A stretch of DNA of 64,000 bases, taken from an uncultured Smithella sp. GTDB lineage: Bacteria; Desulfobacterota; Syntrophia; Syntrophales; Smithellaceae. Under the pieces are notes generated by a model that was given only the letters and a program-made list of their open reading frames with translations, ran no database searches and had not been told where the DNA came from. This document shows positions 32,633 to 52,993 of this stretch, piece after piece (within the stretch, counting starts at the first letter, position 1; each line of letters opens with the position of its first letter). The stretch is from assembly GCA_964547345.1 (NCBI GenBank), contig CAZJMX010000003.1, forward strand, positions 24,800 through 88,799, read 5' to 3'. The translations under genes and the position numbers were made by a program.

Positions 32633-33811
32633 ATGGACATTTCTAAAGACAAAGTATCATCTGATAATTTCAGGAATCTTGTAGAAACCTCTCGGTTTGG
32701 TCCATTTTCTTTTCAAATTGGTGTGAATGAGCATGAGACGGAAATGCTTCTACAGCGTGTTGCCGATGCACAGTTGCGGTTCTTGAGTTCGCCCCTTTCC
32801 CAGGTTGCCAACCGCCTGGAACAGGAAGTTCTGGTCAGCAGTATATTCGGCACGAACACTATTGAGGGCGGGACGCTTAGTGAAGAAGAAACGAAAGATG
32901 CCCTCGATATCGATCCTGCGCAGGTGCAGGCCCAAGAGCAGCGACGTGTTGTCAATATCAAGACGGCTTATGATGTTGCTCAGAATTCAGCACAGGTTCC
33001 CCACTGGAATTTGTCGGTCGATTTCATGAAACAGATCCATGCCGCCATTACGGATGGCATTATCCACAAGTTCAGTCGGCCGGGCGTGATACGGAGTAAC
33101 CCAAAAAATATTGTCACCCGCGTTGGTGACACCGCGCATGGCGGCATCTATAAACCGCCGCAGTATGGAGGTGATATTGAGCTTTTGCTCGATCATCTGG
33201 CGGTATGGCACAATAAATTGGCGGATGCTGAAATACCGGCATTGATTCGCGCGCCACTGGTTCATTACTATTTTGAATTGATTCATCCTTTTTGGGACGG
33301 CAACGGCCGTGTCGGCCGCGTGCTGGAAGCGACGGTGCTGCACAGCGCTGGTTTCCGATATGCTCCTTTCACCATGGCCCGCTACTACATGGAGCGAATT
33401 GACCGGTACTTCACGCTCTTCAATCTTTGCCGCAAGCAAGCTGAGAAAAAGATGGCAGGCCCCAACACGCCTTTTGTCCTGTTTCATCTCGAAGGCATGC
33501 TTGCGGGTATTAATCGACTTCACGACCGGGTGAACGTCATCGTCAGACTGCTTTTATTCGAAACACGTATAAAGCACCTGCGAGATACAAAGGAAATTAA
33601 TCTGCGCCAATATGCCATTCTGACGCAGGTGATCGAGCGCGACAAACCAATAAAGATTGATGAACTGCGCCGCGCACCCTGGTTTGAGGCCCTCTATGCC
33701 AGACTGGGCGATAAGACCAAACAGCGTGACTTAAGCAGGCTTCGTGAGCAGGAACTTCTGTTTGTGGATGAAAAAGGCATCGTCTGGCCGGGATTTGTGC
33801 GAGGAAAATAA
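32633..33811 (+). CDS. Fic-family protein (AMPylase-type) with intramolecular inhibitory motif
   Basis: HPFWDGNGRVGR Fic motif. N-terminal TNTIEG matches the [S/T]xxxE[G/N] inhibitory helix. Confidence 0.85.
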   Translation: MDISKDKVSSDNFRNLVETSRFGPFSFQIGVNEHETEMLLQRVADAQLRFLSSPLSQVANRLEQEVLVSSIFGTNTIEGGTLSEEETKDALDIDPAQVQAQEQRRVVNIKTAYDVAQNSAQVPHWNLSVDFMKQIHAAITDGIIHKFSRPGVIRSNPKNIVTRVGDTAHGGIYKPPQYGGDIELLLDHLAVWHNKLADAEIPALIRAPLVHYYFELIHPFWDGNGRVGRVLEATVLHSAGFRYAPFTMARYYMERIDRYFTLFNLCRKQAEKKMAGPNTPFVLFHLEGMLAGINRLHDRVNVIVRLLLFETRIKHLRDTKEINLRQYAILTQVIERDKPIKIDELRRAPWFEALYARLGDKTKQRDLSRLREQELLFVDEKGIVWPGFVRGK

Positions 33812-45521: not shown

Positions 45522-45602
45522 TCAGATAGTCAGGAACAGCGCTCTATTTATCATATTCTTAAAGAGCGCTGCCCCTAATTACCAAATGTATCTACTCTTT
45601 CG

Positions 45603-46541
45603 TTATCCTTTTTTCTGTTTTAATAACGCATGGATGTTTCTATCCCAACTCTCTTTATGGATGATTCGATCTTTTTGAAGCTTTGCATCCAAAATCTCGG
45701 CTTTAGTCTTTGTCGATAGTGTTTCCCAATTATCGGCAAATACATATGTCGCGTTACCGAAATAAATACTCTCAAGAATATATATGTCTTTATCAGGGAA
45801 TCCGAATATCACATATCCCCAAAAACCGGCACGGCCAACAGCCAAGAACTCAGGGCCATACTTATTCACAGATTCAAGCCTGTGATGAATGACGGCAAGG
45901 TTCCCTTTCGTCAGATTTCCTATAATCTGATTTACCTCTGACTTCAATTGCATCCATGGTCGTCTTCCTGGCGGAAGAACCGTCCAGTTCAATCGGCGTA
46001 AAGGCGCTTTTAAAAAGTCGCCTAAGTTCTCCGCGAAAAGTTGACATTCCCCAAATATCTCCAGGAAAAGATTGACGACATGTAACATTCTTTCCTTATT
46101 CTTTGGTGTATGCGTAATTGCATGCGTCACAATCACTTTTTCACCATCCGCACGTTGTGCAATGACTAACTCGATTGATGGTGGCGGAATAAAAGTTCTC
46201 GGATAACGTTGATATGGAATGTCGACAATTTTTGATTGCTCATCATAGTCATATCGCCCACGCCATTGTTTCCAGTGCCACTCAATCTGCCTATAGGCGG
46301 TTTCCATAGGCTCGTCTTTATGAACAAATGTTTTGCCATTAGCATTGTACGCACTAATTGGACCGAATATCGAAGCTGGTAAAACAGCATCGCCTAACGT
46401 TGGATTTTGAGAGAATCCAATTTGTTTGAGTAGATTGTTAGTTGTTGCGGCAGCGTAGATGCCGAATATTATGGTTTCCCCTTGCGGGACGAGTCGAGTA
46501 TAGTGTTCTAAATCTCGAATACGTTTTTTCTTGATTATCAT
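45603..46541 (-). CDS. hypothetical protein (312 aa), no recognisable family
   Basis: Long ORF with coding-like composition. AAGGGGA SD upstream of ATG at 46541 (MIIKKKRIRD). The ORF-track start at 46577 lies inside a terminator U-tract and has no SD. Confidence 0.55.
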   Translation of the reverse strand: MIIKKKRIRDLEHYTRLVPQGETIIFGIYAAATTNNLLKQIGFSQNPTLGDAVLPASIFGPISAYNANGKTFVHKDEPMETAYRQIEWHWKQWRGRYDYDEQSKIVDIPYQRYPRTFIPPPSIELVIAQRADGEKVIVTHAITHTPKNKERMLHVVNLFLEIFGECQLFAENLGDFLKAPLRRLNWTVLPPGRRPWMQLKSEVNQIIGNLTKGNLAVIHHRLESVNKYGPEFLAVGRAGFWGYVIFGFPDKDIYILESIYFGNATYVFADNWETLSTKTKAEILDAKLQKDRIIHKESWDRNIHALLKQKKG

Positions 46542-46582
46542 CTGGTCCCCTTTTTCATTAACAGTTTGTGTGTACATTAATC

Positions 46583-46616
46583 AAAAAGCTGCAGAATGGG
46601 CCGGGGACTCTGCAGC
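46583..46616 (-). terminator. intrinsic terminator / attenuator between leader ORF and the 312-aa gene
   Basis: On the minus strand: gctgcaga, 13-nt loop, tctgcagc, then TTTTT. Confidence 0.6.
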
Positions 46617-46631
46617 CACATAACGCAACCC

Positions 46632-46751
46632 TTATCGCTTATTTTTTACGCGAATGGCAATCACTCTGCCATTTTTGGGGTAGATGATTTTGCCTGTTCG
46701 CCAGTGGCGAAAGTGCTTTACAAAAATTATGGTATAGTCATCTTTGGACAA
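46632..46751 (-). CDS. candidate 39-codon basic small ORF (leader peptide or small protein)
   Basis: AGGAGG 7 nt upstream of a TTG start. (M)SKDDYTIIFVKHFRHWRTGKIIYPKNGRVIAIRVKNKR*. Below the ORF-track cut-off. Confidence 0.35.
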   Translation of the reverse strand: MSKDDYTIIFVKHFRHWRTGKIIYPKNGRVIAIRVKNKR

Positions 46752-46756
46752 GAAAT

Positions 46757-46800
46757 GTCCTCCTTTCCGCTGGCTTGAGGATTGGGCTTGACAGGAGGAC
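46757..46800 (-). promoter_or_regulatory. SD-sequestering hairpin in the 5' UTR of the small ORF
   Basis: 8-bp stem gtcctcct/aggaggac. The downstream arm on the minus strand is the AGGAGG Shine-Dalgarno itself. Confidence 0.45.
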
Positions 46801-46831
46801 ACCGATTTGATAACCGTTAGCCAATAGATTA

Positions 46832-46860
46832 ATTATCACCGGACCCCATCAGGGGTCCAA
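46832..46860 (-). promoter_or_regulatory. sigma70-like promoter (minus strand)
   Basis: TTGGAC, 17 bp spacer, GATAAT on the minus strand. The spacer contains the hairpin ggacccc/ggggtcc. Confidence 0.45.
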
Positions 46861-46909
46861 CTGTCCGACGATGACCCAAACCAGCTTATTTAGTCATCGC
46901 CAAAGCTCA

Positions 46910-46950
46910 AGAGCCACAAGGTTTGCCAGAACCAAGTGGCTCTTTTTATT
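46910..46950 (+). terminator. hairpin plus T-tract oriented as a plus-strand intrinsic terminator (abuts the RloB stop)
   Basis: agagccac...gtggctct with an inner ggtt/aacc extension, followed by ttttatt on the plus strand. On the minus strand the A-tract precedes the stem. Confidence 0.45.
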
Positions 46951-47500
46951 GTTTTCTCTTTTCCTTCATAAACCTCACAAGAATTTCTAATTCCTGAACC
47001 TGCATTTTTCTTTTTTCCAGAAAATCATATCTGAATATAATTTCGTATTTTCGGGGATCGAGTTTATCGTCGTCATTTAAGTATTTGTCAGCAAATAAAC
47101 GTTTGCATTCGTTTGTCGATTTAACAAGCGGGTCAAAGGCAGGGTCGATAATTTTCAAGAAAAGCCCTTCAATGCAGGGTACGCACCAGATCAATTCCAA
47201 TTTGTTTGTCTTGGCTCTTTTTAAGTAAGTGGGGCGACAGGGCAGGTCTTTATCCAGAAGTACAAAAGCGCGATCATAGTTTTTGGGATTCATTTTTATG
47301 GCATGCTTAATTACACATTCCGGATCACCGCCGCCAGCATAATGAATCCGGATCGAAATGCCATCGTCTCTCTTGTTAAATTGTCCTTTCATAAATTGAA
47401 GAAATGCTTTTTCTGTTTCACCTTCACCGACTGCCAGAACAGTCCAATTTGGTTTTCGGGGTTTATTTATGAAAGGATTCGATCTGGCCATGCGCAGCAC
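46946..47500 (-). CDS. RloB-like (TOPRIM-related) protein, partner of the upstream ATPase (AbiLii-like)
   Basis: VLAVGEGETEKAF, FVLLDKD, LIWCVPCIEGLFL match the RloB pattern. The start (GTG 47500 or ATG 47491) abuts the ATPase stop at 47501. Confidence 0.65.
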   Translation of the reverse strand: MLRMARSNPFINKPRKPNWTVLAVGEGETEKAFLQFMKGQFNKRDDGISIRIHYAGGGDPECVIKHAIKMNPKNYDRAFVLLDKDLPCRPTYLKRAKTNKLELIWCVPCIEGLFLKIIDPAFDPLVKSTNECKRLFADKYLNDDDKLDPRKYEIIFRYDFLEKRKMQVQELEILVRFMKEKRKQ

Positions 47501-48730
47501 CTAAATATTGGGCACAGCGCCGTATGCGCCTGCATCATACTTTGCATAAATATTATCATCACTCCGGACGCCTTTGATTTCATCCAATCGAATCACGTGG
47601 CTATAACCGTATTCATCTTTTTCAACGAGCAGTACTTGATACTTATCGAGCTTTTTCATGAGCTCAATTGAATGGCAGGAGAATATAAGCTGCGCATTGT
47701 TTGGGTTTGTCTTCTTTGAAATAAACAGATCCAATAGCGCTGGTATCATGTGCGGATGTAAATCGACTTCAAATTCATCGAGGACGGCAATACCACCGGT
47801 TTTCTCTTGTAGAATTGGTAATATTTTTCTTAAAATAATGAAGAGATTTTGCGTACCACTTGATTCATAAAATAAAGGGAGTTTATGTGTGCTTTTATCT
47901 TTGCCTACATGGATACCGAAAGGAAAAGGTATTTTTTCGGGCTTTCCTGATTTATCTGTGCCAACTTCCCGTTCTTCAATCTCAATGCCTGAAAGTCCTA
48001 AGTCGAAGCGTGTAAGAAGTTCTTCTGCTTTAGTCTTATAGTCACTGTGCTTATGGAAGTAAGCAGCTGTTTTAAAAATGTGAAAGATGACTTCCTCTTC
48101 ATCTAGATGACCATCACGTCCCTTTTCTCTGACATTTGTGGAAATTTTTGACCAGAATTCGGCAATATTTTTGCTCTCCTCATGGTTGTGTTGTAATGCA
48201 AGAGATATTGTTGATGCATTTTTCCGCATGTTCAGAGACTCACCGAAAGAATTGGGTAGTCCAAAATTTTTTGTTGAAAAATCGAAAAGCTTTTTATCTT
48301 CATTCCAATTACGTTTGAAAAGATACTTGAAGCCTTTACTGCTTTTAATATGCAGAGATTCGTTAAATATCTGGTCAGCTGATAATTTAAGGTCATATTG
48401 ATAAATTATACCCATTTGTATGAAATCAACGGATAAGGATGAAATTACGGGATGATCTTTTTCAAATCTAAAAGGTTGAATTGGTATTTTTGCATCAGGT
48501 TTTAAATTAAATGACTTATTGGTGAACCAACTTAAAAAAGACAAAGCTTTAAGAAGGTTTGTCTTACCCGATGCGTTGGGTCCAAAGCACGCCAATATCT
48601 TTGTCACGCGTTCTCCGTTTTCGGTTGTGATGTATGCATCCGTACAAGGGGATTTTTTATTTACAATGAACCTTACCGCATTCTCTTCTTTGAAAGAGTA
48701 GAAATTATTTATTGAAAAGCCGAGGATCAT
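47501..48730 (-). CDS. AAA_15/AAA_21-type ABC-like ATPase (AbiLi / RloA-like)
   Basis: Walker A GPNASGKTN, Q-loop/signature ESSGTQNLF, Walker B IAVLDEFEVDLHP, H-loop FSCHS. AGGAGG upstream of ATG at 48730. Confidence 0.7.
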   Translation of the reverse strand: MILGFSINNFYSFKEENAVRFIVNKKSPCTDAYITTENGERVTKILACFGPNASGKTNLLKALSFLSWFTNKSFNLKPDAKIPIQPFRFEKDHPVISSLSVDFIQMGIIYQYDLKLSADQIFNESLHIKSSKGFKYLFKRNWNEDKKLFDFSTKNFGLPNSFGESLNMRKNASTISLALQHNHEESKNIAEFWSKISTNVREKGRDGHLDEEEVIFHIFKTAAYFHKHSDYKTKAEELLTRFDLGLSGIEIEEREVGTDKSGKPEKIPFPFGIHVGKDKSTHKLPLFYESSGTQNLFIILRKILPILQEKTGGIAVLDEFEVDLHPHMIPALLDLFISKKTNPNNAQLIFSCHSIELMKKLDKYQVLLVEKDEYGYSHVIRLDEIKGVRSDDNIYAKYDAGAYGAVPNI

Positions 48731-48774
48731 AAGGGCACCTCCTATTAAATACAAAATATTGTTATTTCATTGGT

Positions 48775-49229: not shown

Positions 49230-49862
49230 TTACAATTTAGGCGGCCATAGGCCTTCTCTCGATACGCGTATTTTTATTACATCGGTGGAAATACCAAACG
49301 GCTTACAAATCATAGAAGAGATGCTGGATAAAACAGCTTCGGGGTCATTTTCCAAATAAGTGATCAGGTTTTTTTCTTTTATGACTTTGGCGGCTTGTTC
49401 AATGGATAAAACCAAATCAGAATGCGGCACCAAGAGCCTTCCTGCAAATTCATTGGCCTGCCATTCAAAGCTGCTGTATTCGTAATCAGGGATGTTAAGG
49501 ATAAAATTCTTCCAGTCTTCGACGTTGCGTATATCAAATTCTGCAAATACTTCCTTATGCAAGAAGAAGTGACCGTGTTCATGTGCAAATGAAAATCGCA
49601 GACGATTGGTAAATTTTTCATTCATATAAAAATCATAGTCAACAAAAATGGATTTTACATTCATGCTCAGATACGCATCCATGTCGATTGATGTAAATAG
49701 TCCATGTTTGGGTTCGATGATGAACTGAAGACGAAATTCGACAATTTTTTCAACATCAATCGGCAGATGACCTTCTGGCCAGTGGGTCTTTCGAACATCA
49801 TCCGCGATAGACCAAAGATCTTTCTTGTCAATCCGTTTACACCGAAACTCGCTGGGCTCCAA
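49230..49862 (-). CDS. ImmA/IrrE-family zinc metallopeptidase
   Basis: HEHGHFFLH (HExxH) motif. Located immediately downstream of an XRE repressor gene. Confidence 0.75.
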   Translation of the reverse strand: MEPSEFRCKRIDKKDLWSIADDVRKTHWPEGHLPIDVEKIVEFRLQFIIEPKHGLFTSIDMDAYLSMNVKSIFVDYDFYMNEKFTNRLRFSFAHEHGHFFLHKEVFAEFDIRNVEDWKNFILNIPDYEYSSFEWQANEFAGRLLVPHSDLVLSIEQAAKVIKEKNLITYLENDPEAVLSSISSMICKPFGISTDVIKIRVSREGLWPPKL

Positions 49863-49865
49863 ATA

Positions 49866-50228
49866 TCACCCCCCCTTTTTAATCATCTGAATTAGTTTGT
49901 CCAATTCTTCGGCGGTCGGCTTATCGCTTCGGACGGTGCGAAAGAACATAGGCAAGGCTTTTAATACTTCTTCATTTGACCGGATGTCGTCAGGGATAAT
50001 GCCAGCATCGATATTCGCCAGATCTTTCATCTCCTTCCAGGTGTCCGAACCGATTTTAATACCTAACACACGGGCAATTTTTTTTAATTTTTCTTCATCC
50101 TGCGGTGGCGCTGACACGCCCCGTTCAATTTTGCTCCAGTTGCTGGCGTCCATTTCAACTTGTTTGCAAAATTCCCTCAGGCTTATTTCCTTTTTTGCTC
50201 TTAATTCTTTAATGAATTCTCCATACAT
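49866..50228 (-). CDS. XRE-family HTH transcriptional regulator (ImmR-like)
   Basis: ISLREFCKQVEMDASNWSKIERG HTH. GGGGGAGG SD upstream of ATG at 50228; the ORF-track start at 50324 is probably too long. Confidence 0.75.
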   Translation of the reverse strand: MYGEFIKELRAKKEISLREFCKQVEMDASNWSKIERGVSAPPQDEEKLKKIARVLGIKIGSDTWKEMKDLANIDAGIIPDDIRSNEEVLKALPMFFRTVRSDKPTAEELDKLIQMIKKGG

Positions 50229-50480
50229 AAAAACCTCCCCCAAGTTTTTGTGATTCCTGAATGCAATTAACAAATACCGCATGGTAAAATATTTACCACA
50301 TGTGGTATTATTATAACCACACACGTTGAGAAGTCAAGAGTTATTTGGGGATGTGTGAATGCAGAATGCCTCCCAGCCGCTTTTTGTCCGCATAAAATCC
50401 GCTAAAAAACCGCCTTTTGTCCGAAACTTCTTCCACTCTTTTGGGGTAGAACTCCCGCGATACTTTTTCCTTCAATAATT

Positions 50481-51236
50481 TTGAGGTCAAGCGCCGTGTA
50501 CGAGTGCCGATGTCCCCATGATGGTAAGAAGCTTGCCGAACTGGCCCGGCCACCTTTGGCTTTGGGTCATTATAACTACCCCTGCGAATGTGGGCGGTGG
50601 GTGCATGGAAAGCGGCGACCGAGATATGTTCCACCCGAAGATGACTTTTGGAAGGTTTATGATCAGGCAGTCGGTCAGGACAAGGTTATGCTCCTGGCGT
50701 TTCTTCATCTGGCGGCAAGACGATCGGAAGTATTTCACATCAAATGGTCGGATGTTGATTTTATAAACAACCAAATCTGCCTTTGGACCCAGAAGCGTGA
50801 AGGCGGTCACAAAGAATTCGATTGGCTCCCGATGACGTCGGATCTTCGACAAGCTTTGCTTCAATGGAGTGAAGAAAGATTGAAGCAAAAAACTGAAGAT
50901 AAAGAGCATGCGTTTGTTTGTCTTGATGAAACACCTTTTTGTGAGGAGTATTACGGCAAGCCGTTTATTCATCGGCAGCATCTGATGGCGCGTCTGTGCG
51001 CGAAGGCAAAAGTCAAACCTTTCGGGTTTCATGGCATCAGGCATCTGACTGCATCAATACTCTATCAAAAAGGATACACCCTTTCGGTAATCCAGACTAT
51101 ATTGAGACATGCGAGTCCGAATACGACGGCTCGTTATATCCACAGTCTCGGTTTGGAAGAAACAAGGGGAGCACTGGAGAAAGGTCTAAAAGGTCCTGCG
51201 CAGGGGATCGAGTTTAAAAAGGCAACTGTTCCATAA
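50481..51236 (+). CDS. tyrosine recombinase/integrase, catalytic domain only (probably N-terminally truncated)
   Basis: ARRSEV (Arg), HGIRH, RH...TTARYIH (Tyr) catalytic motifs. TTG start with an in-frame stop shortly upstream. No core-binding domain present. Confidence 0.65.
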   Translation: MRSSAVYECRCPHDGKKLAELARPPLALGHYNYPCECGRWVHGKRRPRYVPPEDDFWKVYDQAVGQDKVMLLAFLHLAARRSEVFHIKWSDVDFINNQICLWTQKREGGHKEFDWLPMTSDLRQALLQWSEERLKQKTEDKEHAFVCLDETPFCEEYYGKPFIHRQHLMARLCAKAKVKPFGFHGIRHLTASILYQKGYTLSVIQTILRHASPNTTARYIHSLGLEETRGALEKGLKGPAQGIEFKKATVP

Positions 51237-51332: not shown

Positions 51333-51407
51333 TGGTAGTCCCAAGGGGAGTTGAACCCCTGTCTCCGGCGTGAGAGGCCAGCGTCCTAACCACTAGACGA
51401 TGGGACC
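51333..51407 (-). tRNA. tRNA-Glu (anticodon CUC), CCA encoded
   Basis: The reverse complement GGTCCCATCGTCTAGTGGTTAGGACGCTGGCCTCTCACGCCGGAGACAGGGGTTCAACTCCCCTTGGGACTACCA folds by hand as a cloverleaf with anticodon loop CTCTCAC. Confidence 0.85.
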
Positions 51408-51586: not shown

Positions 51587-52993
51587 CTATTTTATCTGAT
51601 CTTCAATATAGGTAACGGCGGCGTTGATTCGCCGGATGACTCTTTCCTTGCCTAGCGTGACCATGATTTCGTCAATGCCGGGGCTGACGGTCTTGCCTGT
51701 CAGAGCCACACGCAGCGGCTGGGCAATAACTTTGAATTTAAGCCCGTTTGCTTCGATAAAGGTTTTCAGAAATTCCTCGGCGCTTTCTTTGCTGAAATTA
51801 CCCACAGATGGGATTGCTGCAGACAAGGCTTTCAAGTGGGCCGAAACGTCGGGCGTTAAAAACTTCTGCGCGGCCTGTTCTTCATAGTCTACCTGGTCGA
51901 CAAAGTAGAAATTTGCGGCGCCGGCCAGTTCCATAAGCGTCTTGACGCGCGGCTGTAAGTCGGCGATGATTTTTTGCGTAAAAGCTGAGTCGCCCGCCTG
52001 GGTTCCGGCAGGCCATAAAAGTTTCATTTCTTCCGCGAGACGTTCGGGTTTTGCTTCCTTTATATAGTGTGCGTTTAGCCAGAGGAGTTTTTCGGGATTG
52101 AAAACGGCGGGCGACTTGCCCACGTTATCCAGGCCGAAATGTTCAACCAGCTCTTTTTGTGAGAAAATCTCCTGATCACCGTGCGACCAGCCCAAACGGA
52201 CCAGGTAGTTGACGAGTGCCTCCGGCAGATAGCCCATCTCTTTATAGGCCATGACGGACGTTGCCCCGTGGCGTTTGCTGAGACGCGCTTTGTCCGAGCC
52301 AAGAATCATAGGAACATGAGCGAATTTAGGAACTTCAAAACCAAGCGCTTGATACATCAGAATCTGACGCGGGGTATTATTGACGTGGTCGTCGCCGCGG
52401 ATGACATGCGTGATGTTCATGAGTGCATCGTCGATGACGACGGCGAAGTTATAGGTCGGATAGCCGTCGCCGCGCTCAATGACCAAGTCATCCAACTCTT
52501 CGTTATTAAAATTTATATTTCCCTTGATGAGGTCTTCCACAATCGTGATGCCGGTTTCCACTCCGCGAAAGCGGACAACGCTGCCGGGAGATTTTTTTAA
52601 ACCTTTGTCCCGGCAGGTACCGTCGTATTTGGGCTTTCTGCCTTCGGCCATCGCCGTTTTTCTTTTATTTTCCAGCTCATCGGGTGTGCAGGTGCAATAG
52701 TAGGCCTTTCCCTCGTGGATCAGTTTCTGAACCATTTCACGATGCAGATCAACGCGTTGGGCTTGAAAATAAGGTCCTTCATCCCAGTTAAGCCCGAGCC
52801 AGGTCATGGCATCGAGAATGGCTTTGGTGGATTCGTCAGTCGAGCGCTGCTGATCGGTATCTTCGATTCTTAGCACAAATTCGCCGCCGTTATGACGGGA
52901 GAAAAGCCAGCTAAAAAGAGCGGTTCTCGCCCCTCCGACGTGCAGATAGCCGGTGGGAGAGGGGGCAAAGCGTGTGCGAATTTTGTCTGTCAT
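51587..52993 (-). CDS. gltX: glutamyl-tRNA synthetase
   Basis: [17 protein letters not shown] (HIGH) and RLSKRHG (KMSKS). Confidence 0.9.

Follow-up and report, generated by a model that had tools for sequence, protein, structure and literature searches.

Does a gene that lies behind a textbook-looking regulatory leader own that leader? The question is raised by positions 45,603–46,860 of a 64,000-nucleotide stretch of DNA from an uncultured Smithella sp. (contig CAZJMX010000003.1; this whole stretch is called the window below, and all coordinates are its own). Here, reading along the minus strand, a promoter-like sequence, a hairpin that can bury a Shine-Dalgarno (SD) sequence, a 39-codon open reading frame (ORF) and a terminator-like hairpin follow one another in front of a gene for a protein of 312 residues (312 aa). 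A first-pass annotation of the locus had read this arrangement as an attenuator or leader switch, fitting a toxic effector kept off by termination. All five elements were located where that annotation had placed them, and the overall anatomy is real; its assignment to the 312-aa gene as its switch fails. The annotation is thus supported in part, being accurate as an observation and mistaken in the unit to which it assigned the elements. We consider it likely that two units with no relation to each other, neighbours in this lineage only, make up the 1.26-kb stretch. Unit 1 would be a cassette (46944–46583, minus strand) made up of a structured leader, a UUG-initiated mini-protein gene and a conserved 3′ hairpin, and unit 2 would be the 312-aa gene (46541–45603, minus strand), a member of a widespread family in mobile and defence islands.

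The leader does not accompany the 312-aa family outside one lineage

The link between the two units was assessed in the upstream regions of 80 loci that carry homologues of the 312-aa protein. The small ORF was found upstream of the homologue in none of the 80 (tblastn with the 39-aa peptide), and profiles of two conserved leader segments matched none of them either (nhmmer). Conservation of the leader elements upstream of homologues, on which the attenuator interpretation had explicitly been made to depend, is therefore absent throughout these 80 loci, in none of which a dedicated switch for the 312-aa gene finds a counterpart.

The order AbiLi, AbiLii, cassette, 312-aa gene was found only in the lineage of the window. 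There, AbiLi, AbiLii, a 407-nt gap and the 312-aa gene are kept in at least ten contigs, including a metagenome contig that is 97% identical to the window across the shared region (L087) and eight contigs (L157–L164) whose 312-aa proteins fall into the same 90% cluster. Since the lineage has diverged by only about 3% over the gap, this conservation of the block is uninformative. A textbook-looking 'leader' can thus be the regulatory unit of a neighbouring gene, and the comparative evidence gives no support to a dedicated attenuator guarding a toxic defence effector.

A recurrent cassette with a conserved mini-protein

The cassette, comprising leader, small ORF and 3′ hairpin, recurs in about 75 metagenome loci with unrelated genes downstream. 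Nucleotide identity of 76–78% between the window and other cassettes spans exactly 46963/46946–46632 and stops there (blastn); its limits are the stop codon of the preceding gene and the end of the small ORF. On the downstream side, at varying distances, lie unrelated gene families, genes on the other strand or nothing nearby, the genes including resolvases, primase-like proteins, Fic, GIY-YIG and helix-turn-helix (HTH) proteins. On the upstream side, a family of about 115 aa (MAFERFTKTGRGYKPKVSIWSRGQIGFNQGA...), here called family X, immediately precedes the cassette in 27 loci (L083:1252-1614 and L119:975-1319 are examples among L082–L138), and the remaining upstream genes include ImmA/IrrE peptidases, restriction enzymes and, in the window, AbiLii. 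Hairpin, small ORF and 3′ hairpin are clearly non-random, as judged from covariation or purifying selection across dozens of other loci, and because all three recur before unrelated genes, the cassette is self-contained and not built for the 312-aa gene. On this comparative evidence it is a separate, conserved and undescribed unit, with a predicted structured leader of roughly 190 nt and a predicted 39-aa basic mini-protein, and its context is the pattern of a putative portable module on integrative elements. A transfer-messenger RNA (tmRNA) gene (L107:3077-3432) lies about 800 nt downstream of one cassette, which fits cassettes being near the ends of integrated elements.

The small ORF (46751–46632, minus strand) was confirmed as a UUG-initiated frame of 39 codons (LSKDDYTIIFVKHFRHWRTGKIIYPKNGRVIAIRVKNKR), and UUG starts recur in several cassettes when read by eye. 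One of the first readings had cast it as a regulatory leader peptide; instead, it behaves as a conserved protein under purifying selection. Variability across 58 distinct genes is 0.49 at third codon positions, compared to 0.24 and 0.20 at the first two, and the window differs from locus L084 by 15 synonymous and two non-synonymous codons out of 27, a codon-position pattern and a ratio that together indicate that the small ORF codes for protein. To the 75 loci of the metagenome scan, an exhaustive phmmer search of 1.84 billion representatives adds 29 clusters at E≤1e-3, mostly 35–60 aa in length, and the family consensus is IFVKxFRHWRTGKIIYPKNGxVIAIRxKKK. No runs of regulatory codons occur in the frame, no Pfam or NCBIfam family matches the product, and neither a sequence profile search nor a Foldseek search with the 39-aa model gave a significant match in the PDB. 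The mini-protein is hydrophilic and highly basic, its AlphaFold2 model is a small beta-sheet (pLDDT 85), and neither sequence nor model contains a membrane helix. The small ORF is accordingly annotated here as a predicted real, selected mini-protein and not as a leader peptide.

Searches of phage and plasmid collections returned one marginal peptide match each, and IMG/VR returned one locus, in which the mini-protein motif is fused to a longer ORF. A 512-aa protein (P0124) carries seven tandem repeats weakly matching the core of the mini-protein (..Y..F..G.I.HP..), from which the fold may also occur as a repeat unit.

Compensatory changes define the leader RNA

The cassette leaders follow a common plan, in which hairpins H1 and H2 are followed by GACAG with a variable arm, a domain holding H3 and H4, the complementary arm with CUGUC, the dinucleotide AA, a loop that in the alignment of cassette leaders often reads GCCYAAAAAUAUCGGCGG, and the SD. 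A global MAFFT alignment of the whole leader was too gappy, and motif-anchored segments were used instead; covariation was tested on one such alignment (A9) of 21 sequences, from which the variable domain had been excised, and the pairing statistics for H2 and P1a below refer to it.

In the window, on the minus strand throughout, the first cassette element is H1 (46909–46944), a GC-rich hairpin (AGAGCCAC...GTGGCTCT) seen in the sequence and in the minimum-free-energy (MFE) fold, which directly abuts the AbiLii stop codon (46948–46946). The position of H1 is kept elsewhere and its stem sequences differ between loci; similarity to other cassettes begins here, and the profile of the first leader segment (part A) matches the window at 46943–46858 with E = 8e-10 (nhmmer). 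H2 (46867–46901; GCGATGAC...GTCATCGT, family consensus GCGAUGGC-UAUCUAGnCCGUnCGG-GCCAUCGC) shows compensatory changes at all eight of its pairs, with 96% of cells paired.

Downstream of H2 lies the 5′ strand of a long-range helix, P1 (GACAG-UU-GGACCCC, 46852–46865), which includes the TTGGAC of the promoter-like sequence and pairs with 46803–46790. The 3′ strand of P1 (GGUGUCCUCCUGUC, 46788–46803) holds an anti-SD, CCUCCU, and runs into a GUCAA junction (46792–46788); as GTCAA in the DNA, this motif lies 52–99 nt upstream of the conserved IFV codons in about nine of ten loci and is invariant in A9. The outer part of the helix, P1a (GACAG:CUGUC), is 95% paired, with an exchange between AU and GC in seven sequences, and its U.G wobbles are valid on the sense strand only, indicating that the structured RNA is the sense strand. 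Ten double-changed pairs were observed in A9 against 4.0 ± 1.6 after shuffling (reached in none of 500 shuffles), and slid controls gave 1–4. The variable arms of P1, about 50 nt apart in the window and roughly 45–110 nt apart across loci, covary locus by locus, with cognate duplexes at −17.1 kcal/mol compared to −10.2 kcal/mol for non-cognate ones. These compensatory base changes show that H2 and P1 form as predicted RNA structures. A further helix, P0 (GGU with RCC), proposed to close a three-way junction, was dropped, being 71% paired in A9 and having no compensatory change.

P1 faces two competitors. H3 (46841–46858; GGACCCC-UGAU-GGGGUCC) is a local hairpin that shares its 5′ arm with P1b and competes with it; it reaches −16.3 kcal/mol in the window (z = −5.1), and an equivalent hairpin is present in most loci (mean z = −2.6). 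The P1 5′ arm pairs alternatively with the distal arm at a mean of −10.5 kcal/mol, and both options exist in most loci. The second competitor is the hairpin formed by anti-SD and SD (GUCCUCCU / AGGAGGAC, 46757–46800), which is present in the MFE fold and excludes P1. This is the 8-bp hairpin (GTCCTCCT...AGGAGGAC, 46800–46757) with the SD as its 3′ arm that had been recognised at the outset, and SD sequestration upstream of the small ORF stood up well, the structure being conserved in many loci; in the group of L086 an equivalent pairing is made with changed sequence (CCUUCCG/CGGAAGG). Since the anti-SD lies within the P1 3′ strand and H3 shares the P1 5′ arm, formation of P1, which leaves the SD free, excludes H3 together with the anti-SD:SD hairpin, in which the SD is buried. 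In the window, the fold with the SD buried (OFF) reaches −81.7 kcal/mol and that with the SD free (ON) −74.1 kcal/mol, and the OFF fold also pairs GGACAG with CUUGUCC across the UUG start. The inner hairpin H4 (46808–46838; UGAUAA...UUAUCA), placed within the P1-enclosed domain by alignment and folds, differs in sequence between loci, and substitutions within the lineage concentrate in its loop.

Searches with the Rfam 15 covariance models gave noise only, for the window at the gathering threshold, for 46400–47100 at E≤10, for 16 cassette loci at the gathering threshold and for locus L093 at E≤10.

Transcription start and 3′ hairpin

The promoter-like sequence TTGGAC-17-GATAAT (46832–46860, minus strand) has the hexamers and the 17-nt spacing for which it was first noted, and that part of the claim stands. 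It does not stand out from chance, being a 9/12 match, of which 14 were found in the scanned region where 9.3 ± 3.0 are expected, and it overlaps P1, H3 and H4. Its −35 hexamer belongs both to H3 and to the conserved GACAGUUGG in the 5′ strand of P1, and so falls inside covarying RNA helices; invariance of the −10-like GGTGATAAT is confined to the seven sequences of the window's subgroup. An RNA started after GATAAT would be without H2 and the P1 5′ arm, both of which covary, so that the functional transcript would start upstream of 46901. As the AbiLii stop codon abuts H1, co-transcription of the cassette with AbiLi and AbiLii is plausible. A sigma-70 promoter just upstream of H1, an impression gained by eye, was withdrawn when a consensus match was found in three of 24 loci, compared to 2.9 expected.

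The 3′ hairpin of the window (46583–46617, minus strand) has the loop CCCCGGCCC and is followed by UUUUU. It had been described as a canonical terminator, and we likewise find a GC-rich stem-loop with a U-tract, as in intrinsic terminators; it folds with 11 bp and a 9-nt loop at −15.4 kcal/mol, and was unlisted by the terminator scan tool because the latter accepts loops of up to 8 nt. It is a likely intrinsic terminator at this locus and should terminate transcription at least partly. A hairpin occupies the same position in most of 62 cassette loci, many with a CGG-containing loop (e.g. UUCCGGUCCG or CCCCGGCCC), and only 29 of the 62 pass a test for a stem with a T-rich tail. As a family, the cassette 3′ hairpin is probably not primarily a terminator.

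The H2 loop (46885–46870; ..CCGUnCGGGCC..) and the 3′ hairpin loop (46606–46598; ..CGGCCCGUCCGG..) carry complementary runs, GGGCC/GGCCC and CCG/CGG, which are also present in L093, L094 and L105–L107. The two loops could engage in 5′–3′ kissing, or each could be a copy of the same protein-binding site.

The 312-aa protein belongs to a widespread family

The 312-aa gene (45603–46541, minus strand) has the SD GGGGA at 46550–46546 and an ATG at 46541, 41 nt from the 3′ hairpin. A longer reading of 324 aa is possible from 46577, yet in an alignment of 30 sequences the homologues begin at the same M-I-I as the 46541 start. The description of the protein as lacking recognisable motifs held, in that no Pfam, NCBIfam or PADLOC family matches it. 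It is, however, no orphan: at least 716 homologues were found at E≤1e-3, mostly of about 308 aa, and in species-representative genomes homologues 40–65% identical occur in candidate-phyla bacteria, Chloroflexota, Proteobacteria, Firmicutes, Bacteroidota, Cyanobacteria and archaea. The 30 aligned sequences share 56 invariant columns, and no Pfam family recurred among them in a scan at E≤1. The AlphaFold2 model is confident (pLDDT 87, pTM 0.83), and Foldseek found nothing credible for it in the PDB (best E = 0.13) or BFVD (best E = 0.08); no significant relative emerged when the PDB was searched by sequence profile, and the PHROG search gave a single insignificant match (phrog_1507, E = 0.069).

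No universal partner was found across the homologous loci, and several kinds of neighbour recur. LexA-like S24 proteins are encoded near the homologue in 12 loci, sometimes 3–7 nt upstream; full-length CapP lies directly upstream in two (L019:4937-5773 and L022:5143-5979, E = 1e-38 and 1e-36); MqsA-HTH-Panacea antitoxin-like proteins lie upstream in L001 and L165; and XRE-type HTH proteins are also among the recurrent neighbours. A Shedu SduA gene is near the homologue in L006. From gene order alone, the family looks like a tightly regulated island effector.

Smaller associations were also seen. A DUF2188 gene (74–90 aa), absent from the window, overlaps or closely follows the homologue in at least seven loci (L016:6927-7166, L021, L028, L030, L053, L072 and L075:6928-7152). 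A family of about 100 aa (MAKTNEIIISEIKAFMAKWGGRYIDWYAGIASDP...), with no PADLOC match in three members checked and no Pfam match in the one checked, lies 11 nt upstream or just downstream of the homologue in four loci, three from candidate-phyla bacteria (L003:5687-5989, L004:113-415 and L005:4613-4918) and one from a Smithella metagenome-assembled genome (L020:4808-5299). Three further neighbours of 312-aa homologues match PADLOC 'PDC-S16'.

Family X, for which no relative was found in Pfam, PADLOC or the PDB (including a PDB sequence profile search), is also immediately upstream of 312-aa homologues in two loci, L008:4522-4908 and L045:5179-5634; standing upstream of both, it links two otherwise unconnected families. 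The region between family X and the homologue in L008 (4905-5105) has no small ORF and is structured: one hairpin resembles H1, another ends in ACTGTCAA, and a terminator-like stem (ACAGCGC...GCGCTGT) followed by TTTTT lies just before the SD; nhmmer made no detection there. A degenerate form of the leader, acting directly on the 312-aa gene, may be present here.

Proposed mechanism and alternative explanations

From these features we infer a mechanism for the cassette, a read-through step and a biological role. In the leader, P1 encloses H3 and H4 and is followed by the invariant GUCAA junction, the loop and the SD. The leader would then be a translational switch for the mini-protein, with the SD and the UUG start of the window buried in the OFF fold, and it may be set by the basic mini-protein itself, an obvious candidate, or by another factor. 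The 312-aa gene would be transcribed by read-through of the cassette 3′ hairpin or from an unrecognised promoter, and in this lineage its expression may depend on that read-through as a local by-product, not as a conserved attenuator. In its islands, the 312-aa family often sits behind regulators of its own (CapP-type peptidase, LexA-like S24, XRE or MqsA-Panacea HTH proteins); AbiLi-like ATPases precede it in three lineages.

More tentatively, the cassette may be a mobile module of an RNA and a self-recognising mini-protein, either self-regulating or addictive, and the 312-aa protein a single-gene, pan-prokaryotic effector of new fold under DNA-damage regulators (CapH/CapP, LexA-like); we hold this combined proposal as a possibility well short of even chances. 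As part of it, and equally tentatively, the 39-aa protein would recognise its own leader, through H2, the P1 domain and the GUCAA junction, and the 3′ hairpin.

Several observations weigh against the two-unit account and the switch that it contains. Only about half of the cassettes carry a recognisable anti-SD, so the leader cannot act through SD sequestration in every case; loci also vary widely in how H3 and P1b are balanced, and the leader may not be a true two-state switch. Consensus sigma-70 sequences upstream of H1 are no more frequent than chance, and an additional internal promoter at GGTGATAAT, truncating the leader, is possible. The 41 nt between the 3′ hairpin and the 312-aa start codon hold no recognisable promoter, and the block is intact in L162 despite a changed downstream flank, making a functional link within the lineage possible.

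The last two points also speak for the original proposal, namely a dedicated device of attenuation or conditional read-through, built from promoter, hairpin, small ORF and terminator, by which a toxic 312-aa effector is held off until a signal arrives. The 3′ hairpin with its U-tract is indeed stable and close to the ATG, a promoter scan found no consensus minus-strand promoter between 46832 and 46541, the arrangement survives a change of downstream flank within the lineage, and homologues elsewhere stand behind DNA-damage-responsive repressors, consistent with a product that needs tight control. Nevertheless, we regard this proposal as improbable: leader and small ORF are missing from every one of the homologous loci, the cassette precedes unrelated genes or none in its roughly 75 loci, the peptide is a selected protein and not a codon-sensing leader, most cassette 3′ hairpins are without a T-rich tail and many share the CGG loop, and persistence in so little-diverged a lineage says little.

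A comparable, low probability is given to the 312-aa protein being the third component of an extended AbiL-like system, with the cassette as an insertion or internal regulator. Two distant 312-aa homologues directly follow genes for AbiLi-like AAA_21 ATPases that are 28–37% identical to AbiLi of the window (L064:50-1451 and L075:4420-5724); in L064 an RloB gene intervenes, with a 10-nt gap between it and the homologue. This hints at a recurrent association of AbiL-like pairs with the 312-aa family, and the block of AbiLi, AbiLii, cassette and 312-aa gene stays together when its flank changes. However, AbiL is defined as a two-gene, bicistronic system (PMC10440598). Although the two genes upstream of the cassette match AbiLi and AbiLii, the 312-aa protein and the cassette fall outside that definition; only two of the 80 other loci are so arranged, most homologues having other or no conserved neighbours, and AAA_21 pairs are common in defence islands, so that adjacency may be due to chance.

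Less probable still is a reading of the cassette as a type I-like toxin module, in which a long structured 5′ untranslated region (UTR) would lock the mRNA of a small toxic peptide and an antisense RNA would counteract it. Type I toxin mRNAs (hok/sok, tisB/istR, zorO/orzO) have a long folded 5′ UTR, a buried SD and a short ORF, and are found on mobile or accessory DNA. The cassette shares each of these, with the SD and UUG start buried in its most stable fold, UUG starts that recur, terminal hairpins H1 and H6, neighbours that are mobile-element genes, and an A-rich tract before H1 that, read on the other strand, would supply the U-tract of a terminator. Unlike the hydrophobic peptides by which such modules are recognised, the mini-protein is hydrophilic and highly basic, with a predicted beta-sheet in place of a membrane helix. 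An antisense small RNA ending at H1 was considered but not adopted, as the wobble pairs point to structure in the sense RNA, and no shared antisense promoter or antisense gene was seen by eye in the window and a few loci, no systematic search having been made.

Lastly, the inverted repeats upstream of the small ORF might be DNA operators or promoter elements for a dimeric regulator, given that the −35-like and −10-like hexamers flank H3, a perfect palindrome, and that GGTGATAAT is invariant in the window's subgroup, but this is very improbable in view of the locus-by-locus covariation of distant P1 arms, the restriction of U.G wobbles to one strand, the compensatory pairs of H2 in very different sequences, and stem sequences that vary freely between loci, which is unusual for operators.

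Relation to known systems

The preferred reading, a cassette regulating its own mini-protein, resembles SD-sequestering riboregulators and autoregulatory leaders such as ribosomal-protein leaders, RNA thermometers and translational riboswitches, in which mutually exclusive 5′ UTR folds include one that buries the SD. The cassette likewise has exclusive folds, and the small, very basic protein encoded in cis could be a ligand of this leader. It differs from these known systems in having no Rfam match, an anti-SD in about half of its members, and a location on mobile or accessory DNA and not in housekeeping operons. The criteria of trp/his leader-peptide attenuators do not describe it: the peptide is conserved, codon runs are absent and the leader precedes the 312-aa homologue in none of the 80 loci. 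In Lactococcus AbiD1, a structure in the translation-initiation region holds expression down and a phage protein or cold activates it (PMC2661086), which makes AbiD1 the nearest documented precedent for the original proposal. The AbiD1 structure controls the Abi gene itself, whereas here the structure would control a separate small ORF, and no homology between the two was found. The leader motif with its partnered mini-protein family, contained in none of Rfam, Pfam and NCBIfam, is a candidate new cis-regulatory RNA or RNA–protein pair; its cassettes recur on mobile DNA across many environments, and the mini-protein is small enough for chemical synthesis.

CapH/CapP reportedly activates CBASS, along with many further immune operons, upon DNA damage (bioRxiv 10.1101/2022.04.27.489752; PMC13228613). 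As in operons controlled by CapH/CapP and LexA, 312-aa homologues follow CapP or adjoin LexA-like S24 proteins, a comparison in which the regulation is read from gene order only and the window peptidase matches capP only partially (6.6e-14). The 312-aa protein belongs to no known CapH/CapP- or LexA-regulated system, and its family, repeatedly behind regulators of immune operons after DNA damage, is a candidate unrecognised single-gene defence or stress effector.

Genomic context of the window

The region is a tRNA-flanked island. Its core flank includes GltX (51587-52993) and a tRNA gene (51336-51407, minus strand), adjoined by a tyrosine integrase (50481-51236) at the island entry. Integrase and tRNA, beside the core genes GltX, YceD and FabF, mark one boundary of a defence island of about 20 kb, extending leftward at least to a Fic gene (32633-33811).

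The minus-strand array runs from an HTH_19 protein (49866-50324) through a CapP-like M78 (ImmA/IrrE-like) peptidase (49230-49862), an AbiLi-like AAA_21 ATPase (47501-48754; PADLOC AbiLi 1.4e-72, Pfam AAA_21), an AbiLii/RloB-like protein (46946-47500; PADLOC AbiLii 2e-8, Pfam RloB) and the cassette to the 312-aa gene, which is last. The AbiLi and AbiLii genes abut, are co-oriented with the cassette and lie directly upstream of it, and the pair has the AbiL composition of an AAA_21 ATPase followed by RloB/Toprim-OLD in one operon. As had been stated, the 312-aa gene lies between defence modules, with AbiLi/AbiLii upstream and convergent HEPN/RES-NTD1+RES and GmrSD genes downstream; leftward from it, the convergent plus-strand genes are HEPN/RES-NTD1+RES, GmrSD, T5orf172, helicase, MmeI-like, AbiEii and Fic.

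Between the convergent 312-aa and HEPN/RES genes lies a 9-bp inverted repeat with an AT-rich loop (CAGCGCTCT...AGAGCGCTG, 45537–45571), neither strand of which shows a clear U-tract. At the other end of the array, the HTH protein and the partial CapP-like M78 peptidase that head it suggest DNA damage control of the whole array.

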